From the NCBI GenBank assembly GCA_048886685.1, contig JBHLKM010000001.1:128001-192000 (forward strand): a stretch of 64,000 bases of DNA, in the 5' to 3' direction. Below the pieces are notes generated by a model. That model was not told the origin of the DNA, ran no database searches, and saw only the letters and a program-made list of their open reading frames with translations. How positions within the stretch are numbered: position 1 is the stretch's first letter; the number at the start of each line of letters is the position of its first letter. Shown piece by piece: positions 1 through 9,240 of this stretch. The position numbers and the translations under genes are program-made. This DNA comes from Candidatus Hodarchaeota archaeon (GTDB lineage Archaea; Asgardarchaeota; Lokiarchaeia; Sigyniarchaeales; SOKP01).

Positions 1-51
1 ATAAGTGATGGCGATGACATATTATTAATTCCAGCAAGTACAGCTGGTTAA
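1..51 (+). CDS. 3' end of a ubiquitin-like (beta-grasp) protein, partial at window edge; paralog of 1922..2254
   Basis: Frame 1 reads ISDGDDILLIPASTAG-stop; the last 14 residues are identical to the C-terminus of the Ubl at 1922..2254 (VNDGDDILLIPASTAG). Not in the ORF track. Confidence 0.85.
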   Translation: MSDGDDILLIPASTAG

Positions 52-95
52 AATTTTAGGAAATAGTAAATTGCTTTAAATATCATTTACTTTTT

Positions 96-890
96 TTATC
101 CTCTATCTTTTCTTGAGGGAATTAGAGCTATTTCATCATCATCTTCTAAATTAAAGTCTTTTATTTGTGAGGTTTCGTCTAATAATATCCCTCCTGAAGA
201 GAGTAGAAAACTTTCTAGATTATAATCAAATAACCTTCCAATTTTTTCTTTGATAATACCAACTAATTCACTAGTATCTATTATTATTATTTTTGTTTTA
301 TCACCTGCCTCAACTAATGATCTTATGTAAACACGGATTTGGTCTTCAGTATCAAAAGTGTTTATAATTGGTGGATAAGTAATGTTCTCATCAGTTATAT
401 CTCTATTTCTCAACATATTTTCAATTAATGTTTTTCTCTCATTTGAGTCAAAATAAAGCATTTCCCGAATAAAAAAAATCTTGTCCATTTTTGATAAATT
501 TAGTAGATTTATTTTATTTATTTCTTCTTGACTAAAAACTGAAAAAATGTACTTATCGATTATTGTCATATCCTTATAGGATTCATTGCTTTCAACATAT
601 TCTTTAATTTGAGGCATTGCATCAATATATTCTTCAATTATTTCAGATGATTTCATTTTAATTGATTTTGGTTCAGGTAAATATTTTTTTTTCTTAAATT
701 TATCATCCCAACTACCTTTAGAATGGATAACTGTATACACAGTACTAGTAGAAAGTACTGAAACACTACCTATTGATATAATAAAGAATAGGGAATAATT
801 TTCTATATGAAATAGGAAAAAAGAGGCATAAATCAAAATACAAACTGTATAAAGAGCAATAACAATTAAAATTCTATTTTTTTTCCTCAT
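96..890 (-). CDS. Membrane-anchored ubiquitin-like protein (2 N-terminal TM helices, helical linker, C-terminal beta-grasp ending in free Gly)
   Basis: Hydrophobic segments at about aa 7-28 and 33-56. Aa 184-258 align without gaps to the soluble Ubl (27/75 identical by hand, including F.LSSGG...DE.S...D.N..D.D.I.LIP). Ends ...RKDRG-stop. Confidence 0.8.
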   Translation of the reverse strand: MRKKNRILIVIALYTVCILIYASFFLFHIENYSLFFIISIGSVSVLSTSTVYTVIHSKGSWDDKFKKKKYLPEPKSIKMKSSEIIEEYIDAMPQIKEYVESNESYKDMTIIDKYIFSVFSQEEINKINLLNLSKMDKIFFIREMLYFDSNERKTLIENMLRNRDITDENITYPPIINTFDTEDQIRVYIRSLVEAGDKTKIIIIDTSELVGIIKEKIGRLFDYNLESFLLSSGGILLDETSQIKDFNLEDDDEIALIPSRKDRG

Positions 891-975
891 GATTTTTTAA
901 TTAGATTGTTTTCTGAATTTAAAATATATAATTTAAAATTTAAATGAGATTGGAATAAAATTGAAGTTTTTATCT

Positions 976-1647
976 TTAATCGCCTTGAATTAAATTTTTA
1001 ACCTTTATATAATTCTTTACATCAAATTTGAACAGTTTTCTTTTATTGTCTTTCTCAATATTTACTAATTTCAGATCTGTTAAGATACCTAAATATTTTT
1101 TAATTGTGTTATGATTTTTTTTCATCCCAGATGCAATTTCTGTAATTTTTAATGCTTTATTCTCTTGCCTCATAAAATCAATTATTTCTTGAAGAATTTG
1201 TTTCCGCAAATAATAGTATAGGTCATCATATTTAGGATTTGAATCAAATTTAAAGAAAATTCTATGATTGTTGATTTGCTTTGATCTTACGAATTGGAAT
1301 TTTTCTAAACATGATAAGTGCCATAAAGCTTGATTACTTCCGATTTGCAGAACTTTCATTATTTCATTAATATTTGATGGATTCTTTTTAATGTAATTAA
1401 AAATTTCATTTCTTTTAGGATGTTCTATAATGTTATTTTTCATTAATCTGGTACCAGGAAGAATAACTCTTCGTTTAATTAAATCTTTTAAGATAAGCTC
1501 TATTCTATTCTCGTTTATATTAGGATTATACCTTACCCTATTATTAATAAATGATATAATTTCTCTTAGGGAAAAGAAGGTCTTTTTCGCTAAATATTCT
1601 TCTACTAATTCAAGAACAACAGATTCAGCATTATCCAGAGAATTCAT
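976..1647 (-). CDS. Tandem winged helix-turn-helix (ArsR/MarR-like) transcriptional regulator
   Basis: Two wHTH-like repeats (RNEIFNYIKKNPSNINEIMKVLQIGSNQALWHLSCLEK; LKITEIASGMKKNHNTIKKYLGILTDLKLV) plus an N-terminal wHTH-like segment. Confidence 0.7.
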   Translation of the reverse strand: MNSLDNAESVVLELVEEYLAKKTFFSLREIISFINNRVRYNPNINENRIELILKDLIKRRVILPGTRLMKNNIIEHPKRNEIFNYIKKNPSNINEIMKVLQIGSNQALWHLSCLEKFQFVRSKQINNHRIFFKFDSNPKYDDLYYYLRKQILQEIIDFMRQENKALKITEIASGMKKNHNTIKKYLGILTDLKLVNIEKDNKRKLFKFDVKNYIKVKNLIQGD

Positions 1648-1921
1648 GAGCTTATAATTTTATTGTGTTAAAAATTTTGGTCTTGTAAATTTGTATTCTC
1701 TTTAAAGCAACATTTTATTGAATATATATAATAATAGGCATTCATACAATTTATAATATAATTTCTTATAAGTCTTAATTTGCTCCATCTCATTTTTGAT
1801 ATAACCGCAAAAAACTTCAAAATCATTCCAAAGGATTTTATATTATCTTTTTAATGCGATTTTATTAAGTTAATAAAAAATAACAAATAACAAAAAAAAA
1901 TAAAAAAAAGGAGTGTTTTAA

Positions 1922-2254
1922 ATGAGTTTTGATGAATTTGAGGAGGACTTAGGTGAGGAGGAACCTTTAAAATCTAAAACTCCCGCCACTAAAACCCCTT
2001 CCACAGGAAAAAAACTTACTTTATATTTCATGTCAACTATTGGTCCTGGTGAAAAGAAGGAAAAATTAACAGTAAATGACAGTAATCAAGTAAGAGATAT
2101 TAAGCGAACTTTAGGTAATCTATATGGACTTGATCCTAATGACTTTCATTTATCTTCAGGTGGAGTAACAATGGATGAAAATAGTTCTTTAAGAGACTAT
2201 AATGTAAACGATGGCGATGATATTCTTTTGATCCCTGCGAGTACTGCGGGGTAA
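1922..2254 (+). CDS. Ubiquitin-like modifier protein with acidic/disordered N-terminal extension, C-terminus ...STAG
   Basis: Beta-grasp pattern (strand-strand-helix VRDIKRTLGNLYGL, LSSGGVTMDENSSLRDYNVNDGDDILLI, compare ubiquitin [28 protein letters not shown]). Directly upstream of E1-E2-JAB-RING. SD-like GGAGTG upstream. Confidence 0.9.
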   Translation: MSFDEFEEDLGEEEPLKSKTPATKTPSTGKKLTLYFMSTIGPGEKKEKLTVNDSNQVRDIKRTLGNLYGLDPNDFHLSSGGVTMDENSSLRDYNVNDGDDILLIPASTAG

Positions 2255-2287
2255 ACTTATATAATTTTTTTCATAAAATATAATATG

Positions 2288-2316
2288 AGGGCTTTAAGCC
2301 CTTACCCTTTTTTATT
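2288..2316 (+). terminator. GC-containing hairpin followed by T-tract between the Ubl and E1 genes (putative terminator/attenuator)
   Basis: AGGGCT-TTA-AGCCCT inverted repeat (2288-2302), then TACCCTTTTTT, in an otherwise very AT-rich spacer. Confidence 0.4.
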
Positions 2317-2321
2317 TATTA

Positions 2322-3557
2322 TTGGTGATAATATTGAAAAAGAGTTCAGATTTTTTTAGTAAAGACCTAACATCGGAAGAAAGAAATTTATATGACCGAC
2401 AATTTAGACTTGAAGGATGGTCACAGAAACTAGTAAAAAATTCAAGAGTTTTAATGGTAGGGGTCGGGGGATTAGGGTGTGAAATTGCCAAGAACCTAGC
2501 AATGTTAGGTGTGGGCCATATAGATTTAGTAGATTTAGATATTATAGAACATTCAAATTTAAATCGTCAAATTTTATTCGCAGGTGCTAAGTTGGGAGAA
2601 CCTAAAGCGATAGTAGCAGCAAAAAAATTGATTGAAATTAATCCGAATATAATTATTAAAGGATATCATAGTTCCCTAGAAAGATTGGATCCAGCATTAT
2701 ATCAAGCTGCTGATGTCGTCGTAGGTGGTCTTGACTCCATGAACGCTCGGTTGAATTTAAATGCTCAATGTATAAGATTTAGAAAACCGTTAGTAGATGG
2801 AGGTGTATCAGGTTATCATGGTCACGTTTATACAGTTTTTCCTTACAAAAATGCGTGTTATGAATGCAATCCACTCCCAGTAGGAGAAAATGATGAGATG
2901 GCAGCATGTACAGTCGTAGGTGTGCCAAGAAAAAGAATCCATTGCGTTTTCAAAGGAGATATGGCCTTTAAGGAAGAATTTGACAGGGATCCTAATCCAA
3001 AGAATATTAGTGATATAAAATTTATTCAAAAAATTGCTAACGAACTAGTAGATAAACACAACTTTCCTCCTGAGTATACTGAAGATGATATAGTTAAAAT
3101 TATTGATAGGCATGATCCTGGAATTATAACCATCAATGCTGTCATTTCTGCATTACAATCACATGAAGTTGTAAAAATCCTTCATTGGAAAAAAGGTCAT
3201 AAGGGTTTAGGTGAACCAATTAAATCCTACGTTATTTTCAATGCTATAACAATGATGTTTTATCATATTGAAAAGAAAAGAAATCCAGAATGTTCTCAAT
3301 GCGGGAAAAATGTTCGAAGATTCGTAGTCAAGTTGAAAAGGAGTTCTCCATGTATTAATATAATAAAAACCTTAGAAAATTATGGCTTTAAATTAAACCC
3401 TGATCTGGAACCCGTTATAACATTACTGGATTTTAATGACGTCAAGATGATTGATTTAGAACAGAATCCAATTGACAATAATTTACGAAATTATGAATTT
3501 ATGACAATTGCAGGCTTTATAGAAGGAGAAATTTTTGTAACCTTAAAATTAAAATAA
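2322..3557 (+). CDS. Ubiquitin-activating enzyme E1 (ThiF/UBA family, eukaryote UBA3/UBA2-like); probable start TTG at 2334
   Basis: GVGGLGCE nucleotide-binding loop, DLDIIEHSNLNRQ, Zn motifs CYEC and CSQC, catalytic-Cys motif CTVVGVPRKRIHC (C196), PGIITINAVISA, and a C-terminal extension at the UFD position. Confidence 0.92.
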   Translation: MVIILKKSSDFFSKDLTSEERNLYDRQFRLEGWSQKLVKNSRVLMVGVGGLGCEIAKNLAMLGVGHIDLVDLDIIEHSNLNRQILFAGAKLGEPKAIVAAKKLIEINPNIIIKGYHSSLERLDPALYQAADVVVGGLDSMNARLNLNAQCIRFRKPLVDGGVSGYHGHVYTVFPYKNACYECNPLPVGENDEMAACTVVGVPRKRIHCVFKGDMAFKEEFDRDPNPKNISDIKFIQKIANELVDKHNFPPEYTEDDIVKIIDRHDPGIITINAVISALQSHEVVKILHWKKGHKGLGEPIKSYVIFNAITMMFYHIEKKRNPECSQCGKNVRRFVVKLKRSSPCINIIKTLENYGFKLNPDLEPVITLLDFNDVKMIDLEQNPIDNNLRNYEFMTIAGFIEGEIFVTLKLK

Positions 3558-3666
3558 ACGGTTTAGCAAAAATGTATTTTATAAAAATTTAATGAAATAA
3601 TTAAAAATATAACTATAAATTTAGATATTTAAAGTAAATAATAAGAAAATCTAAAGGGTTGAGAGT

Positions 3667-4194
3667 ATGAGTATAAGAAGTAGTCGAATCTCACAAGATT
3701 TTGCTGGATTAAAAAAATTATATAAACAAGGAACAATTGTTCAGTTAAAACCATTTAATCCTCAAAGAAAGAGTATTGATCATTTAGCAATAACTATTAA
3801 AGGACCTAAGGGTACCGCTTATGCAGGTGGTCTTTTTAAATTAGAAATGAAATTCCCTGCTCAGTATCCTAGGCAACCACCTTTTGTTAGATTACATACT
3901 CCAATTTGGCATCCAAATTTCTGGGCAAAACCGAATGAATATAAAGGACAGAGAAATATTTGTTTAGCGTTAGTAGATCCATCTTTAGTTGGAAAAAAAG
4001 GTGGGTGGAGTCCATCAAAAACAGCTGTTACTGTCGTTCAGGCTATAATTGCGATGTTAAATACACGAGGCAAGTATGTAAATCCAACTGATGTTTTCAA
4101 TAAGAAAGCAGCGATAGAGATGATGAAAAATCAGAAGTTTTTTGAGAAAAAAGTGAAAAATCTCGTTAAAAAGTATGCTAATAAGAAGTGGTGA
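3667..4194 (+). CDS. Ubiquitin-conjugating enzyme E2 (UBC fold)
   Basis: GPKGTAYAGGLFKLEMKFPAQYPRQPP, TPIWHPN, catalytic C99 (NICLAL), WSP motif, FNKKAA helix. Confidence 0.93.
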   Translation: MSIRSSRISQDFAGLKKLYKQGTIVQLKPFNPQRKSIDHLAITIKGPKGTAYAGGLFKLEMKFPAQYPRQPPFVRLHTPIWHPNFWAKPNEYKGQRNICLALVDPSLVGKKGGWSPSKTAVTVVQAIIAMLNTRGKYVNPTDVFNKKAAIEMMKNQKFFEKKVKNLVKKYANKKW

Positions 4195-5021
4195 AAAATA
4201 AAATGGGAGAAGAAAATTCACATATAGACTCTATTAAAGAAACAATAAAATTGAAAATTAAAGACATAATAAAGAAGGAGTTGTTAGAGGAAATTTATGA
4301 AGAATTAAAATTAGAAGAAAAAGAATTAGTTAATGAAATTAGTTCGATGATTTCTAAAAAAAGTCCTGAAAGACAAACGATTAAGCATTCAGCTACCATT
4401 CCCACCAAATCAGAGACAATAAAAGTAGAGGAAAAAAGTATTGATGAAGATAAAATAGAAAAAGAGGTATACATTTCTGTTAAAGCAATTCTAAAAGTGG
4501 CAAGTCATGCGCTTAAATATGCGAATCCTAAAATTCCTAGACAGAGTTGGGTAGAAGTAATAGGGTTACTTGCAGGAAAGGTAGATGATAAGAATGGCAT
4601 TTTACATATTGAGGATTACTATCCTATGGGTCATGGAACAGCAGTTTATGCCGAAATAAAAGATTATAGAAACTATGCTAGAGCTTTCCAAGATATTAAA
4701 AAACAAAAGTTATTTATCTGTGGTTGGGCTCATAGTCATCCTTCTTACGGATGCTTTATGTCTAGTGAAGATATTGGTACTCAATCAAGATATCAAAAAC
4801 TTTGGAACAAAGCTGTTGCCCTTGTTATCGATCCATACCTTATTGATGGAACATCAGCTGGTTTTGAGATTTATCGAGCGGATTTAACCACAAAGAGTTG
4901 GTACCCTTTAGTTTATGGCATTAAAGGGTCATTAGACATTCGCATGCTCCCAGAAATACTAAATTTTATGAATCCGATAATTGAAGGGAAAGCAATTTAT
5001 CTTGAATATGATGAAAATTGA
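4188..5021 (+). CDS. JAB1/MPN+ (JAMM) metallo-isopeptidase, Rpn11/CSN5-like, with charged N-terminal extension; probable start ATG at 4203
   Basis: EVIGLLAG catalytic Glu; GWAHSHPSYGCFMSSEDIGTQ fits E-xn-HxH-x7-S-x2-D; AVALVIDP. Overlaps the E2 stop. Confidence 0.92.
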   Translation: MVKNKMGEENSHIDSIKETIKLKIKDIIKKELLEEIYEELKLEEKELVNEISSMISKKSPERQTIKHSATIPTKSETIKVEEKSIDEDKIEKEVYISVKAILKVASHALKYANPKIPRQSWVEVIGLLAGKVDDKNGILHIEDYYPMGHGTAVYAEIKDYRNYARAFQDIKKQKLFICGWAHSHPSYGCFMSSEDIGTQSRYQKLWNKAVALVIDPYLIDGTSAGFEIYRADLTTKSWYPLVYGIKGSLDIRMLPEILNFMNPIIEGKAIYLEYDEN

Positions 5022-5050
5022 AACAGATAAATTTTGGTGATTCTTAAACT

Positions 5051-6256
5051 GTGGCAAAAATTAAATCTGTGGCAATTGTTTTGGTTATATTTCTATTAAT
5101 AGGCATAATACATGGTATTATTTCAGATTCATTAAATGTATTTGTAAGTTGGTTATTGATTGGAATCTGGTTGATATTTTCTTTTAAGGTTCTAAAAAAT
5201 ATTAAGCAGTATCGTGAATATAATTCACCTCATAATACTGCATTTTTTACAATTGCTCCTGTCTTTTTTGGAATTTTTTATTCAATCTGGGGAAATTTTA
5301 CAGGTTTATTAGGTGAAAATCTTCTAGAAGATACAGATTTATATTTAAGCTGGTGGAGTATTCTTTTTGGATTTCCATATATATTATATGGTTCTATTTC
5401 TCTGTATCGTTGTTTCAAAAAATTTAATGTGATTTATTTTGGAACTAAATCAGTAAATGCACGTAAATTTGGATACATTTTAGGCATCTCAATCCTATCT
5501 TTTATACTTATTTATTGGATAAGTTTTTATTCACTTATCGACTTCTATGATTCTTATTTAGTACCTCTTCACTTTTTAGTAGATCTAAATCTTTTAATCT
5601 TGCTTATCAGTACAATATTAATAATAATTATCCCGGGATTGTTTGGAGCCCAAACAAGATTACCCCAATTAACAAGAGATTATATAACACAAAGAACAAA
5701 TCGATTAAACCAATTAACCTCACCTACAAGCAATGGAACTCCTAGAAGATATAGAGAGAGCGTTCGGAAAACAACAAGAACATCTCCAACTCCCATAACC
5801 AGAACTGTTACGAGTAGATCAAGTTCAATTAGCCATTCTTCAAGAACAACACCCACAATGCACAGTCGATCTACAACTTCAAGGTCCAAAACAGCTACTC
5901 GAACTGTAAGCAGAGGTTCGGCAGGAACGCAAGTAAGAAGCAAACAAAGCACCAAAAAGATAAGTAATTTTAATCTGTATAAACCAAGAGCGGCACGTCT
6001 GTCAACAGAGGATTTTAAATGTATCTTTTGTTTTAAATTACCGAAATTTCCTGAAGATAGGGGAAGAGGAATAATTTTGTGTCCTAATTGTCGATATCCT
6101 GCTCATGCAGACGAATTTAAAGATTGGTTACGAAGTTCAAACCTCTGTTCTCGATGCAACGCGCCAATTCCAGCCAGTTACAGAAAAAATCCTAAAGTAT
6201 TGACTATCAAAAATTATATAGTCGTAGTCAAGCATTTTGTAAATAATAGGAAATAA
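5051..6256 (+). CDS. Six-TM membrane protein with Ser/Thr/Arg-rich linker and C-terminal RING-like zinc finger (putative membrane E3 ligase)
   Basis: Six hydrophobic segments in aa 7-198; low-complexity aa 201-305; C324xxC327...C344PNC347...H352xxE355...W359L...C366xxC369, with the RING-typical WL before the last CxxC. Last gene of the Ubl operon. Confidence 0.8.
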   Translation: MAKIKSVAIVLVIFLLIGIIHGIISDSLNVFVSWLLIGIWLIFSFKVLKNIKQYREYNSPHNTAFFTIAPVFFGIFYSIWGNFTGLLGENLLEDTDLYLSWWSILFGFPYILYGSISLYRCFKKFNVIYFGTKSVNARKFGYILGISILSFILIYWISFYSLIDFYDSYLVPLHFLVDLNLLILLISTILIIIIPGLFGAQTRLPQLTRDYITQRTNRLNQLTSPTSNGTPRRYRESVRKTTRTSPTPITRTVTSRSSSISHSSRTTPTMHSRSTTSRSKTATRTVSRGSAGTQVRSKQSTKKISNFNLYKPRAARLSTEDFKCIFCFKLPKFPEDRGRGIILCPNCRYPAHADEFKDWLRSSNLCSRCNAPIPASYRKNPKVLTIKNYIVVVKHFVNNRK

Positions 6257-6279: not shown

Positions 6280-7245
6280 TTAATTTTTCTTTTTTAGCTT
6301 TTCCTTTAAATCCCCTATTTTAGTTGTCAATTCCGCAAAAACATTATGCGGATGAATACTTTCTTGTGATAAAATTTTAAATTTTATTTCAAAATCATCT
6401 TCAAGATTTGGAAAATCTCTTAAAATGAAATTTCTTGCCATTTCTCTTATAACATCTTCAGAAAATAGGGGTTTTAAATGAGCGCTTCTTACTAATTCAG
6501 CTTCCTCAGGTCGCTTTAACACAGATTGTATTTTTCCGCTCATAGATTCTTCTATTACATCAATTATATCTAAGACATCAATTTTATGATTTGATAAATC
6601 TTTAATTTGAACAGTAATAGTGCCAATTGACCTCTGGTTATGTGATGAAAATGGGAGAATATTAATTAACTTTTTAAGGTCATCTTCTGAGACGTTAATA
6701 TCTTTTCTCGTTTTGATGATTTCTTCAGCATATTCCTGTGACATTTCTTTTGCACATGGACATACTGTCATTCCGACAGCGCTTGCTCCAATGAAATAGG
6801 TATAATCAATTTCACCTGATGATGATCTGTTTGCTTTAACATAAGAGCTAATATCGTATGATTTTTGGATATTTCTTGTATTATTTTCTCTAACTTGTAC
6901 AACTATTCTTCCCTCTAGCTTAACTTCCGCCTTTGAAGTATAGAGATGCCGTTCTAACAGTTTTCGAACTATTCTATCACCTACTAATTCAATTGTGGGC
7001 GTTGGTTTGAAAATTACCTCATTTATAACTTCTTCTATAGTTTCAGAAGTTCTTGACATATGAATGCCTCGTTGTTGAGCAGGAAGGTCGATTAATGCTG
7101 AAATTTTTGGATAAAATGAGTACTTCTTATTCTCTTGTACAATTTCAACTTTTTTCTCTAGTTCAACAATCCCAACTTTATCTATAGCGATATCGAATGC
7201 AGATCCCGAATCTTGAAGATCCATTTTAAATTTGTAAATTTTCAC
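6280..7245 (-). CDS. mptA: GTP cyclohydrolase IV MptA (FolE2/GCYH-IB family)
   Basis: RGIHMSR, GMTVCPCA, SHNQR, VLKRPEE, P.FSEDVIR and ESIHPHN motifs. Confidence 0.9.
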   Translation of the reverse strand: MKIYKFKMDLQDSGSAFDIAIDKVGIVELEKKVEIVQENKKYSFYPKISALIDLPAQQRGIHMSRTSETIEEVINEVIFKPTPTIELVGDRIVRKLLERHLYTSKAEVKLEGRIVVQVRENNTRNIQKSYDISSYVKANRSSSGEIDYTYFIGASAVGMTVCPCAKEMSQEYAEEIIKTRKDINVSEDDLKKLINILPFSSHNQRSIGTITVQIKDLSNHKIDVLDIIDVIEESMSGKIQSVLKRPEEAELVRSAHLKPLFSEDVIREMARNFILRDFPNLEDDFEIKFKILSQESIHPHNVFAELTTKIGDLKEKLKKKN

Positions 7246-7418
7246 TCACCAATATAAAATTTTTTTTTCTCTAATTTAGAAAAAGAAGAATCGATTTTAA
7301 TAGTTAATATAAAAAAAGGTAATCATTTCAACAAAAGAATTAGATAATTTGAAATAACTTAATGTTATAGTATAATATTAAAAATAACTTCAATCATTAT
7401 ATTCAAGCGAATTTAATA

Positions 7419-8588
7419 ATGCATAAAACAGTAATTAACAGCCCATATGCGTTGATTGGGGATAATCTAAATTTAAAGAAGAATGTTTCTGTAGAAATTG
7501 ATAATGGAGGGAAAATCACTAACATATCATATGAAGATCCTGAAGAAAACATTCAACCTTTAAAAAGTAACCAATCTAAATTAATAATCCCTGGCTTAAT
7601 TAACTCTCATGTGCATATCGGTGATAGCTTTGCAAAAGAATTAGGATTTAATAAAGAATTAAGTGAGATTGTAGCACCTCCATTTGGTTTAAAACATAAA
7701 TTGCTGAGACAAACCCCAAAAGAAGTTATAATTATGGGGATCAAAAACGCAGTTTTCGAGATGCTTTCGAACGGAATTACTTGCTTTATAGATTTTAGAG
7801 AAGGGGGTGTTGAAGGCTTAAAACTTCTGAAAAAAGCCTTAGATAATACACTAATAAGTTGTTTAATCTATGGTCGATTTATGGATGAGAGTGAAATAGA
7901 ATTAATTTTTGAGTTAGGTGATGGTGTTGGATTAGCTAGTTATGACCAGATTTCGACTAAGAATAAGGAATATGTTATTAAATCTAAGCATAGTTCAAAA
8001 AAAATGATCGCTTGTCATTGTGCAGAAAAAATTCATGATTCAAATTTATTAGATGATATGTTTAGTGATAAATTAGTTGATGTAATAATCCATGGAACTA
8101 AATTGATTAGAAAAGACCTTATCAAAATTCAAAAAGAGGGAAAGTCTTTAGTTTTATGTCCTCGCTGTAATGGATATTTTGGAGTTGGATTCCCTCCTAT
8201 TACGGAAATATTACAGTTTAAAATTCCTATATCATTAGGAACGGATAATATAATGGTGAATAATTCAGATTTATTTGAAGAAATGCGTTATTTATATCGA
8301 ATCTCGAGAGTATTGGGGAGCCATGATAAAACAATACAATTGACCTCAAGAGAACTCTTAAAAATGGTTACGGTTAATGCAGCCAGAAATTTCCGAATAG
8401 AAAACGAATTTGGATCAATCTCAGAAGGTAAAAGAGCCGATTTCTTTTTAATAGATTTAAAGGGACCAAATTATTATACCAATAACTTAAGTAAAAACAA
8501 TATTTATGATATCATCGTTCAAAGAACTAAATCGGAGAACATTATAAAAACATATATAAAAGGAGATGTCGTATTTGAGAGAAAATGA
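7419..8588 (+). CDS. Metal-dependent amidohydrolase/deaminase (TIM-barrel amidohydrolase superfamily)
   Basis: PGLINSHVHIGD, HCAE, IHGT, LGTDN, GSISEGKRADF. Overlaps the following reductase gene. Confidence 0.85.
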   Translation: MHKTVINSPYALIGDNLNLKKNVSVEIDNGGKITNISYEDPEENIQPLKSNQSKLIIPGLINSHVHIGDSFAKELGFNKELSEIVAPPFGLKHKLLRQTPKEVIIMGIKNAVFEMLSNGITCFIDFREGGVEGLKLLKKALDNTLISCLIYGRFMDESEIELIFELGDGVGLASYDQISTKNKEYVIKSKHSSKKMIACHCAEKIHDSNLLDDMFSDKLVDVIIHGTKLIRKDLIKIQKEGKSLVLCPRCNGYFGVGFPPITEILQFKIPISLGTDNIMVNNSDLFEEMRYLYRISRVLGSHDKTIQLTSRELLKMVTVNAARNFRIENEFGSISEGKRADFFLIDLKGPNYYTNNLSKNNIYDIIVQRTKSENIIKTYIKGDVVFERK

Positions 8589-9240
8589 AAAACCGTATAT
8601 TATATTAAACGCAGCTATGACGATAGATGGAAAAATTGCATCAAAATCGGGTGATCCTGAACTCTCAGATGAGGAAGATTGGAAGGAGGTTCATAAACTT
8701 CGGACTCAAGTTGATGCTATTATGGTCGGAAAGGGCACAATTTTAAAAGATAACCCAAAGCTGCATATTAAATTTTATGACCATACAGGATACTACAGAA
8801 TTGTCGTAGATAGTAATCTTACCATTCCAATTGAATCCAATGTCATTTCTTTTGAACCAGAAATATATCCTACTATTATATGTACAACAGAAAATACATC
8901 ACCTAAAAAAGTAAGGAAATATGAAGAAAAAAAAGTTAAAGTCATCCAATCGGGAAAAGGAGAACAAGTAGATTTGAGAAAACTCATGCCACTTCTAAAG
9001 GAATTTGGAATTAATACTATTTTACTAGAAGGAGGGGGAAATTTAAACTGGAGTTTTATTAAAAATGATTTGATTGATGAAATCAGGTTGACTGTGGCAC
9101 CGTGGATTGTTGGTGGGAAAGAAGCAACTAGCCTGGTGGAAGGAATAGGTTTTAATACAATGAAGGAAGCAAAAAGATTTGATTTAATTGAAGTGAGAAA
9201 GAGAAATAATTATATTAATTTATTTTATAGAAAGAATTAG
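8566..9240 (+). CDS. arfC: 2,5-diamino-6-(ribosylamino)-4(3H)-pyrimidinone 5'-phosphate reductase (RibD-C/Rib7 family)
   Basis: AMTIDGKIA, VHKLR..VDAIMVGKGTILKDNPKL, LLEGGG, LIDEIRLTVAP; no deaminase domain. Confidence 0.88.
   Translation: MSYLRENEKPYIILNAAMTIDGKIASKSGDPELSDEEDWKEVHKLRTQVDAIMVGKGTILKDNPKLHIKFYDHTGYYRIVVDSNLTIPIESNVISFEPEIYPTIICTTENTSPKKVRKYEEKKVKVIQSGKGEQVDLRKLMPLLKEFGINTILLEGGGNLNWSFIKNDLIDEIRLTVAPWIVGGKEATSLVEGIGFNTMKEAKRFDLIEVRKRNNYINLFYRKN

Follow-up and report, generated by a model that had tools for sequence, protein, structure and literature searches.

A conserved Asgard archaeal operon for a predicted ubiquitin-like pathway with an Ala-Gly tag and an integral-membrane RING protein

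The closest described relatives of the locus discussed here are the operons of Candidatus Caldiarchaeum subterraneum and of Asgard Clusters I-II, in which genes for ubiquitin (Ub), an E1-like and an E2-like enzyme, a small RING protein (srfp) and Rpn11 stand together, and as of 2017 such srfps were the only RINGs known from archaea (Hennell James et al., 2017, PMC5654768). An Asgard ubiquitin-ESCRT system with GG-ubiquitin, a soluble RING and UEV-Vps23 has also been reported (Hatano et al., 2022, PMC9192718; Lu et al., 2024, bioRxiv 10.1101/2023.07.25.550441), and the ubiquitin cascades so far examined in archaea combine a GG tag with a small soluble RING. Within the window, the 64,000-nucleotide stretch of Asgard archaeal DNA that we analyzed, five co-oriented genes (1922-6256, + strand) encode a ubiquitin-like tag (Ubl), an E1, an E2, a JAMM protease and a transmembrane RING protein (TM-RING). 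Judged by its sequence, this operon is a variant of the known archaeal Ub-E1-E2-RING-JAMM kind with predicted activity: it shares with the Caldiarchaeum and Cluster I-II operons the same five clustered functions, a UBA2/3-like E1, and a JAMM protease with propeptides, but differs from them in an Ala-Gly tag end, an acidic arm with KTP motifs, poly-tag precursors, a KTP-bearing neighbour and, instead of an srfp, a RING protein of about 400 aa with six transmembrane helices and a Glu ligand. One copy was already catalogued in 2017, since the CR_4 E1 OLS16232 appears in Supplementary Table 2 of PMC5654768 beside the E2 OLS16231, and one of the operon loci analyzed here has OLS16231 as its E2; the same paper gave a C-terminal ubiquitin-fold domain on the CR_4 E1 at 10% confidence only. 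In the literature outside subscription journals, our search found no description of the Ala-Gly tail, the TM-RING or the KTP motif.

The first-pass annotation of this DNA had proposed a co-oriented Ubl-E1-E2-JAB-TM/RING run, and the open reading frame coordinates agree with it, as do matches above cut-off to Pfam ubiquitin, ThiF, UQ_con and JAB in a profile search of the window proteins. Synteny across Asgard archaea, the check it had suggested, turned out to be extensive: among loci chosen through a tag or RING match, where related genomes are non-independent samples, the five-gene order is unbroken in 36 genomes that we inspected, which represent 10 families from Lokiarchaeia, Borrarchaeum-like lineages and Heimdallarchaeia (Hodarchaeales among them), and five Heimdallarchaeaceae carry the same five genes split over two adjoining blocks. 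A survey of 300 Asgard genomes found the tag in 122, the RING in 113 (as a single-copy gene in each), both in 110 and neither in 175; the tag was not found in one 76-genome Asgard family, nor in G031 and G037, each a single-contig genome (92-93% complete) from the same order. A scan of the locus for promoters, using a bacterial consensus on an archaeal host, gave matches at chance level. On its catalytic residues and gene order, the five-gene operon is real, complete and conserved, a predicted Ubl cascade whose tag lacks GG and whose RING protein is integral to the membrane. The phylum-wide spread, the poly-tag precursors and the KTP-motif neighbour go beyond what the first-pass annotation had noticed.

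The operon opens with UblB (1922..2254, +), a free tag of 110 aa that passes the Pfam PF00240 cut-off, is modelled at pLDDT 92 and consists of an acidic disordered arm with KTP motifs at K19 and K24 (window 1976-1999), a ubiquitin fold and Ala-Gly as the mature C-terminus. The coding tail at 1..51 (+), previously read as belonging to a further Ubl gene, is indeed the 3' end of a second free tag, UblA (whole gene at genome C1:127668-128051, starting 332 nt before the window), whose 127 aa include an acidic arm with two KTP motifs and the C-terminus STAG and which is 72% identical to UblB. The final Gly of the tag aligns with ubiquitin G76, placing Ala-Gly at the Gly75-Gly76 position, and this ending is kept in 169/169 tags, free or C-terminally fused, in keeping with the earlier remark that the modifiers lack a GG motif; near the end of the tag there is no Lys or Arg. 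Many of the 169 continue into a short variable extension (propeptide), and other lineages, Hodarchaeales included, contain in-frame poly-tag genes of three and two units in which AG closes each unit, the three-unit gene being present in two independent assemblies; invariant Ala-Gly, propeptides and poly-tag precursors together indicate cleavage at Ala-Gly. Its nearest structural company is ubiquitin, ISG15 and Caldiarchaeum Ub (6fno), the last being the best natural Foldseek match of the tag (E 1.4e-7).

The E1 (2322..3557, +; ThiF 198 bits) is UBA2/UBA3-like, with GxGGxG at residue 47 and a catalytic C196 (codon at 2907); its best PDB matches are SAE2, UBA1 and UBA3, and in a PDB search it reaches E 1e-38 to 1e-35 against UBA2/UBA3 compared with 1e-14 against UBA5. 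The E2 (3667..4194, +; UQ_con 91.5 bits) has an HPN motif and a catalytic C99 (codon at 3961). Both cysteines had been named as the catalytic ones from the sequence, and they stand, C196 aligning to the region around the catalytic Cys in SAE2/UBA2 and C99 being invariant across homologues; GxGGxG and the catalytic Cys are retained in 85/85 E1 homologues, as are HPN and Cys in 85/85 E2 homologues. The E2 shows a mean column identity of 75% across the sampled Asgard families, with an unusually conserved surface. The JAMM/MPN+ metalloprotease (4188..5021, +; JAB 51 bits) has E123, H182, H184 and D195, and among its homologues the Glu motif is found in 79/80 and the H-x-H...D pattern is matched in 74/80, so that the catalytic motifs of E1, E2 and JAMM that mark the archaeal operon are all in place; it would be a putative maturase and deconjugase. 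In trees built without eukaryotic sequences the operon E1s form their own clade (support 96/97), the operon E1 and E2 clades are separate from those of the GG-ubiquitin system and family-level clades appear in both; the Borrarchaeum-like E1s fall among the Lokiarchaeia, which suggests one transfer. Identity to the canonical-type E1 and E2 of one GG cluster is 32-33%. The operon probably represents a second self-contained Asgard Ubl conjugation pathway, apart from the GG-ubiquitin/small-RING system.

The last gene encodes the TM-RING (5051..6256, +), for which the first-pass annotation had predicted six transmembrane segments and a RING; a structure model supports the former with six long helices within residues 2-198, followed by a basic, disordered linker rich in Ser/Thr/Arg (about aa 200-305) and a RING-type finger (6020-6157) that is cytoplasmic by the positive-inside rule, and the RING is atypical. 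Its ligands follow a C4-H-E-C2 pattern, that is, seven Cys/His plus an invariant Glu (E355) at the sixth position, which may still ligate zinc, and there is no Arg after the last Cys. The fold is nevertheless RING/U-box: profile searches match RNF24 (E 2e-4) and other RINGs, and most top rows of a structure search with aa 315-401 are RING/U-box (Z 6-7.5). The finger also resembles that of IFT144/WDR19, which is not known to us as a ligase. The Trp and loop hydrophobics through which RINGs contact an E2 are present (W359 invariant, I325 in >90% of homologues), and a docking model of E2 and RING scored 0.64, against 0.23 for the best of three controls and by a mark that 58/80 solved pairs and 2/110 mismatched pairs reach, its runs sharing at least 97% of contacts with a partner pLDDT of at least 87. 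The modelled interface is canonical (E2 helix 1, loops 4 and 7; RING I325/F326 and W359), and since RING-E2 is a textbook pair the score may owe to similarity with RING-E2 complexes already solved, possibly memorised by the predictor. On this modelling the TM-RING is a probable E3 ligase acting with the operon E2. In all families it is a protein of 350-420 aa with about six TM helices, not a small soluble RING of the srfp kind; an alignment search returned 383 matches, and of the 120 listed, those with a name are all archaeal or metagenomic 'hypothetical protein' entries.

What such a ligase would modify is suggested by a short motif, hydrophobic-x-Ser-Lys-Thr-Pro (KTP), found in the arm of the tag and at both ends of a neighbouring coiled-coil protein (genome C1:126315-127451), the sole conserved neighbour of the operon and a soluble one. 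KTP-type motifs, defined by Lys and Pro with a variable middle residue, occur 8.9 times per 1000 aa in tags and 8.7 in the neighbour, compared with 0.14 in other locus proteins (about 60-fold); genome-wide there is no enrichment (82 matches versus 67 in shuffles). A proline-directed phosphorylation site is disfavoured, the Thr often being Ile, Val or Lys in the coiled-coil neighbour, and the motif could alternatively be a docking site. The KTP lysines are the best candidate acceptor sites for the tag and may serve as such.

The following scheme takes its catalytic residues, five-gene order, Ala-Gly end and precursors from sequence, and its chemistry is inferred from the presence of E1, E2, RING and JAMM. 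JAMM would cut the precursors after Ala-Gly; the E1 would adenylate the terminal Gly of the tag, form a thioester on C196 and hand the tag on to E2 C99; and the charged E2 would dock on the RING, whose cytoplasmic position in the six-TM protein implies discharge at the inner membrane face. Less firmly, the acceptors may be KTP lysines, both those of the tag's own arm, building chains as at SUMO2/3 K11, and those at the two ends of the coiled-coil neighbour; the basic linker of the E3 may catch the acidic arm of the tag and JAMM would also strip the tag from conjugates. In eukaryotic cascades replacement of Gly75 is tolerated by the E1 and can block transfer by RING E3s (PMC3731359), which implies that the whole AG cascade would need co-adaptation. 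As a whole, an orthogonal Ala-Gly pathway of Lokiarchaeia and Heimdallarchaeia (including Hodarchaeales), in which a membrane RING ligase puts the tag on KTP motifs, those in its own arm as well as those in a filamentous protein encoded alongside, is a tentative proposal, and more doubtful than its acceptor sites taken singly.

Other readings give the same parts different tasks. The TM bundle might recognise or extract damaged membrane proteins that the tag then marks for degradation, an ERAD-like role which the Hrd1/gp78 topology (TM bundle, linker, cytoplasmic RING) invites, as does a RING-less TM-bundle paralogue adjoining the TM-RING in Heimdallarchaeia (hhalign 96.7%, E 4e-10) that could form a heterodimer with it; we consider this unlikely, however, because the match to the Hrd1 structure does not rise above noise (Z 6.1, rmsd 5.8 Å, 145 aligned, 7% identity, rank 22, amid unrelated helical bundles), the bundle has no PDB sequence or Pfam match and shows low conservation (34% column identity), the loci that we read have no conserved gene for Cdc48, the proteasome or a derlin next to the operon, and the one conserved neighbour is soluble. 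The likeness to ERAD or UFMylation drawn in the first-pass annotation reduces to layout, the tag grouping by structure with ubiquitin and not with UFM1 and the E1 being UBA2/UBA3-like. No more probable is an E3-independent route of the SUMO/Ubc9 kind, with the E2 reading KTP itself and the TM-RING doing no more than localising the E2, either as a scaffold or as a zinc finger that binds the tag: a short consensus in disordered tails (the tag's arm included), the conserved E2 surface, SAE2 as best E1 match and a non-canonical, IFT144-like finger all speak for it, yet the invariant E2-contact Trp and nearly invariant hydrophobic loop residue, the canonical docking in the model and the tight co-occurrence of tag and RING speak for a ligase. 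An antiviral cassette like Bil or CBASS Cap2/Cap3 would explain the patchy presence and the transfer suggested by the E1 tree, but it is very unlikely given a single-copy operon in a stable housekeeping neighbourhood, family-level E1/E2 clades, very slow E2 evolution and PADLOC matches to the E1 that are generic to ThiF domains only. Attachment to a lipid amine, as in ATG8 lipidation, or to another membrane component is slightly less probable still: a single-Gly end and a membrane E3 would suit it, but tag, E1 and E2 are of the ubiquitin, UBA2-3 and canonical UBC types and not of the ATG8/ATG7/ATG3 types (ATG7 E 1e-8 versus SAE2 1e-38 for the E1), and the conserved lysine motif indicates protein targets.

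Upstream of the operon lie the TM-Ubl gene (96..890, -), whose product has two N-terminal hydrophobic segments (hydropathy), a helical middle, a C-terminal divergent Ubl domain and a basic tail, and a divergently oriented gene for a double winged-HTH protein (976..1647, -; Pfam HTH matches), both as first annotated. A membrane-anchored third modifier that tethers substrates, as then proposed, would fit the Gly end seen in the window's genome at about the right position, but 46 of 48 distinct homologues lack it and end in basic Arg/Lys tails, the invariant Ala-Gly tail and KTP motif are missing, and the UblA-TMUbl-wHTH block was seen only in the window's own family, where TM-Ubl is patchy. We therefore reject TM-Ubl as a modifier and regard its terminal Gly (2/48 homologues) as incidental, which removes one of the 'three single-Gly Ubls' and makes a membrane modifier the most improbable reading of all. 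From its sequence TM-Ubl is probably a non-conjugatable accessory membrane Ubl-domain protein, one that, as a lineage-specific addition to the Ala-Gly cascade, may compete for or recruit its enzymes. For neither TM protein did a feature search of the ESM Atlas yield a usable match. The wHTH protein has several paralogues in the genome and is a possible local regulator outside the conserved core, its linkage to the operon being limited to the family of the window. Of the 'distinct membrane-centred Ubl pathway' of the first-pass annotation, the distinct conserved cascade, the non-GG tag and the membrane RING survive (the ligase being membrane-integral in the six-TM model), and the membrane-anchored modifier does not.

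If these readings are right, Asgard archaea run a second Ubl pathway in parallel, one that evolves slowly, uses a tail code of its own and has a membrane ligase, and the KTP motif offers a precise acceptor-site prediction for what an Asgard Ubl attaches to. Hodarchaeales are a proposed sister group of eukaryotes, and the reach of the pathway into them bears on whether Ubl pathways running in parallel, and E3s anchored in the membrane, arose before eukaryotes did. Were the membrane ligase to act on KTP motifs, prokaryotes would have E3s anchored in membranes, chain building directed by a motif and precursor genes in the style of polyubiquitin, and the cascade its first named natural substrate; an orthogonal AG cascade could also serve protein engineering.

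Compared with Asgard ubiquitin-ESCRT, the operon shares an E1-E2-RING cascade in membrane biology, but its E1 and E2 form separate clades and no ESCRT/UEV genes were noticed in the loci read, whose ORFs were inspected by eye. UFM1 has in common with the tag a single terminal Gly and an Ile-Pro four residues ahead of it; a UFM1 identity of the tag is disfavoured, since PF03671 matches none of 29 tag members (the model also matches nothing in 150 Asgard genomes), the 50 best structural matches do not include UFM1, and in place of a UBA5/UFC1/scaffold-E3 set there are a canonical HPN E2, a RING and an E1 whose UBA5 match is about 24 orders weaker. The Asgard 'Ufm1 homologues' described by Kostlbacher et al. 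(2026, PMC12962969) may overlap with the tags. Hrd1/gp78, MARCH6/Doa10 and Tul1 likewise join an N-terminal multi-TM bundle to a cytoplasmic C-terminal RING, and RING-CH has the same C4-H-x-C2 ligand order, but the TM-RING differs from these ligases in having no detectable TM-bundle homology, a Glu as its sixth ligand and a locus free of ERAD partners. A non-conjugatable Ubl domain at the membrane is also known from membrane-anchored ubiquitin-fold (MUB) proteins and integral proteins of the Herp type; TM-Ubl, by description, likewise holds one beside a conjugation cascade, but is anchored through N-terminal TM segments and was found in only one Lokiarchaeia family in our searches. SUMO2/3 build chains on K11, and SUMO acceptors follow the consensus psi-K-x-E; the SUMO pathway resembles the operon in a disordered N-terminal arm whose lysine consensus recurs in a candidate substrate and in SAE2 as the closest E1, whereas the tag core is nearer ubiquitin/ISG15 (Z 14.5-13 versus 12.4), its motif is psi-x-S-K-T-P, its end is not GG and a JAMM enzyme takes the place of a Ulp protease.

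Every gene of the cluster lies in the window where the first-pass annotation had placed it. On the forward strand of the source genome (4.4 Mb, GC 30%), the operon tag (1922-2254), E1 (2322-3557), E2 (3667-4194) and JAMM protease (4188-5021) match Pfam ubiquitin, ThiF, UQ_con and JAB over cut-off, and are followed by the TM-RING gene (5051-6256), which taken whole has no Pfam match; the successive intergenic gaps are 67, 109, -7 and 29 nt. Positions 1-51 hold the tail of UblA (127 aa), a paralogue that shares 72% identity with the operon tag. The E2 belongs to the canonical UBC type, and the E1 ATP motif, E1 Cys, E2 HPN and E2 Cys are retained in 85 of 85 homologues, the JAMM motif in nearly all. 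E1 C196, already proposed as catalytic, aligns onto the catalytic Cys segment of SAE2 and is probably that residue. Downstream (6280-9240), a folE2 GTP cyclohydrolase, an amidohydrolase and a RibD-like reductase form a housekeeping flank conserved within the genus, with no sign tying them to the operon.

That the locus is a conserved unit was borne out, since the order Ubl-E1-E2-JAB-TM/RING is kept in 36 inspected genomes from ten families (in two of them a contig end truncates the last gene); five Heimdallarchaeaceae have the operon genes split into two adjacent blocks. Named through cluster members, the groups with the operon are Sigynarchaeum, Lokiarchaeote CR_4, Borrarchaeum, Heimdallarchaeaceae and Hodarchaeales. 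Among 300 Asgard genomes, related and thus not independent, with loci selected by a match, the tag occurs in 122, the RING-type finger in 113, both in 110 and neither in 175; tag and finger are found in the same nine families, the finger nearly always once per genome. In the E1 tree the operon E1s form one clade (support 96/97), separate from the other E1s of this genome and from a canonical GG-cluster E1, and contain a Heimdallarchaeia subclade (98/96), while the Borrarchaeum-like E1s (L072-L074) nest within Lokiarchaeia, for which horizontal transfer is perhaps a candidate cause.

The modelled operon tag has a ubiquitin fold (pLDDT 92), closest in structure to ISG15, ubiquitin and Caldiarchaeum ubiquitin, and because its last Gly superposes on ubiquitin G76, Ala stands in place of G75; this Ala-Gly occurs in all 169 distinct family members, and in about a quarter of them it is followed by a short extension of variable sequence. 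The strongest case from sequence that the terminal Gly would be the processing and conjugation site comes from in-frame genes of three (P0056, L174:59-1177; identical translation from JGI and Logan assemblies) and two (P0062, L176:205-957) tandem units similar to Hodarchaeales tags, each unit closed by Ala-Gly, a layout shared with polyubiquitin precursors that makes them a prokaryotic analogue of polyubiquitin genes. The tag is also fused C-terminally, Ala-Gly end retained, to vWA, HerA and zinc-finger proteins adjoining the operon in different lineages (L027:9691-11448, L073:12072-13814, L088:13770-14660) and to a 277-aa protein, Roadblock-like as judged by eye, with a KTP (Lys-Thr-Pro-type) motif in its linker (contig C2:401620-402453, reverse strand), which could conceivably be conjugated entire.

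The predicted six-TM RING protein is recovered by the structure model, which shows six helices between residues 2 and 198, then a disordered linker (22 basic, 2 acidic residues) and a compact finger, and because basic residues sit on alternate loops, both termini and the finger are predicted to be cytoplasmic. The finger (6020-6157) matches RING/U-box domains in profile and structure searches; the second-best PDB profile match is the IFT144/WDR19 C-terminal zinc finger, and the human protein has Glu at the position equivalent to Glu355. Across 25-28 phylum-spanning sequences, seven Cys/His ligands, Glu355 (ligand 6), Trp359 and Arg368 do not vary. The E2-RING complex model (score 0.64 vs 0.23 for the best control; contact agreement at least 97%, partner pLDDT at least 87), at a mark that 58 of 80 solved pairs and 2 of 110 mismatched ones attained, supports E2 binding, but as RING-E2 is a textbook pair, the pass may reflect likeness to known pairs and is no demonstration of binding. 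In Heimdallarchaeia a RING-less 195-aa paralogue of the bundle (hhalign 96.7%, E 4e-10) directly adjoins TM-RING (L082:5186-5770, L077:6741-7328, L086:4259-4837), a possible heterodimer partner of the E3. Separately, two genomes of one genus carry a second linker-plus-RING copy without TM immediately 3' of a tag gene (L187:8634-9302, L188:6447-7109), adjoining wHTH and TM-Ubl, and CR_4 has an additional RING-only gene in tandem behind TM-RING (L028:6490-7916).

The best candidate substrate, judged from sequence, is a coiled-coil protein of 378 aa that bears KTP motifs at either end (contig C1:126315-127451, equal to L001:10315-11451; reverse strand, 549-1685 nt before the window). In most loci whose flank extends far enough, a counterpart adjoins the operon; it is a low-complexity protein in Heimdallarchaeia and a coiled-coil one in Lokiarchaeia and the Borrarchaeum-like genomes. 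The ends of this neighbour carry repeats of hydrophobic-x-[S/E/T]-K-[T/V/I]-P, also present in the tag arm (K19 and K24 of the operon tag, UblB), at 8.7 motifs per 1000 aa against 8.9 in tags, 0.14 in the remaining proteins of the loci and 0.06 across the genome. Of the neighbours, 25/25 contain the loose motif, as do 44/46 tags; because the motif is my own definition and the neighbours were chosen by eye, this enrichment is descriptive. Since the middle residue varies, a lysine acceptor or docking role is favoured over Thr-Pro phosphorylation, and that the lysines accept the tag is an almost even bet.

On balance the operon probably encodes a working E1-E2-RING-JAMM cascade, which would act on the inner face of the membrane; the rival readings overlap with it in part. 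ERAD-like quality control seems unlikely: neither structure nor sequence searches turn up a recognisable relative of the TM bundle, and Hrd1 (Z 6.1, rmsd 5.8 A) falls amid unrelated bundles. Equally doubtful is a SUMO-like mode independent of the E3. The closest solved structures to the E1 are SAE2/UBA2, UBA1 and UBA3 (E 1e-38 to 1e-35). UBA5 and ATG7 match at 1e-14 and 1e-8, and lipidation is quite improbable, a defence role scarcely less so. Least credible is TM-Ubl (96-890, reverse strand) as modifier: its Ubl domain stems from the tag family (35-41% identity), yet Gly ends only 2 of 48 homologues, which rules out a third tag, the tail is basic, it has no KTP motif, and close homologues are confined to some genera of the window's family, the UblA-TMUbl-wHTH block not being seen in loci read from any other family. 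I read it as a putative non-conjugatable accessory membrane protein with a Ubl domain. The gene layout and the conserved Ubl cascade with a membrane RING stand, whereas the membrane-anchored modifier does not.

The same genome holds a separate small operon (contig C11:510-2796 and 4399-5361) that encodes a Ubl ending in GG, an E2 of divergent sequence, an E1 of short length and a JAB; close to it lie a GTPase-like gene and a further multi-TM protein whose C-terminal finger is rich in Cys. An additional E1 (527 aa) and E2 (C13:88370-92732) have no Ubl that could be found adjoining them, and searching this genome with a canonical-type Asgard ubiquitin gave no match.

Eukaryotic E1s accept some position-75 substitutions, yet RING-dependent transfer can fail (PMC3731359), so the AG cascade should be co-adapted and is probably orthogonal. 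The GG/ESCRT system is the subject of Hatano 2022 (PMC9192718) and Lu 2024 (bioRxiv 10.1101/2023.07.25.550441), and Asgard Ufm1 homologues, some with several match regions, are reported by Kostlbacher 2026 (PMC12962969); the tests on the tag favour ubiquitin over UFM1, though it may overlap with that set. The Caldiarchaeum operon was reconstituted by Hennell James et al. (PMC5654768), who also drew up a catalogue of the Asgard clusters; their Suppl. Table 2 contains CR_4 E1 OLS16232, adjacent in accession to E2 OLS16231 of locus L028, so the E1 and E2 of that cluster are already on record; the supplement states that small RING proteins were the only ones then known from archaea. The window cascade would resemble that of Caldiarchaeum in its working, however two defining features, the GG end and the small soluble RING, are missing, which makes it a variant of the Caldiarchaeum-type cascade.
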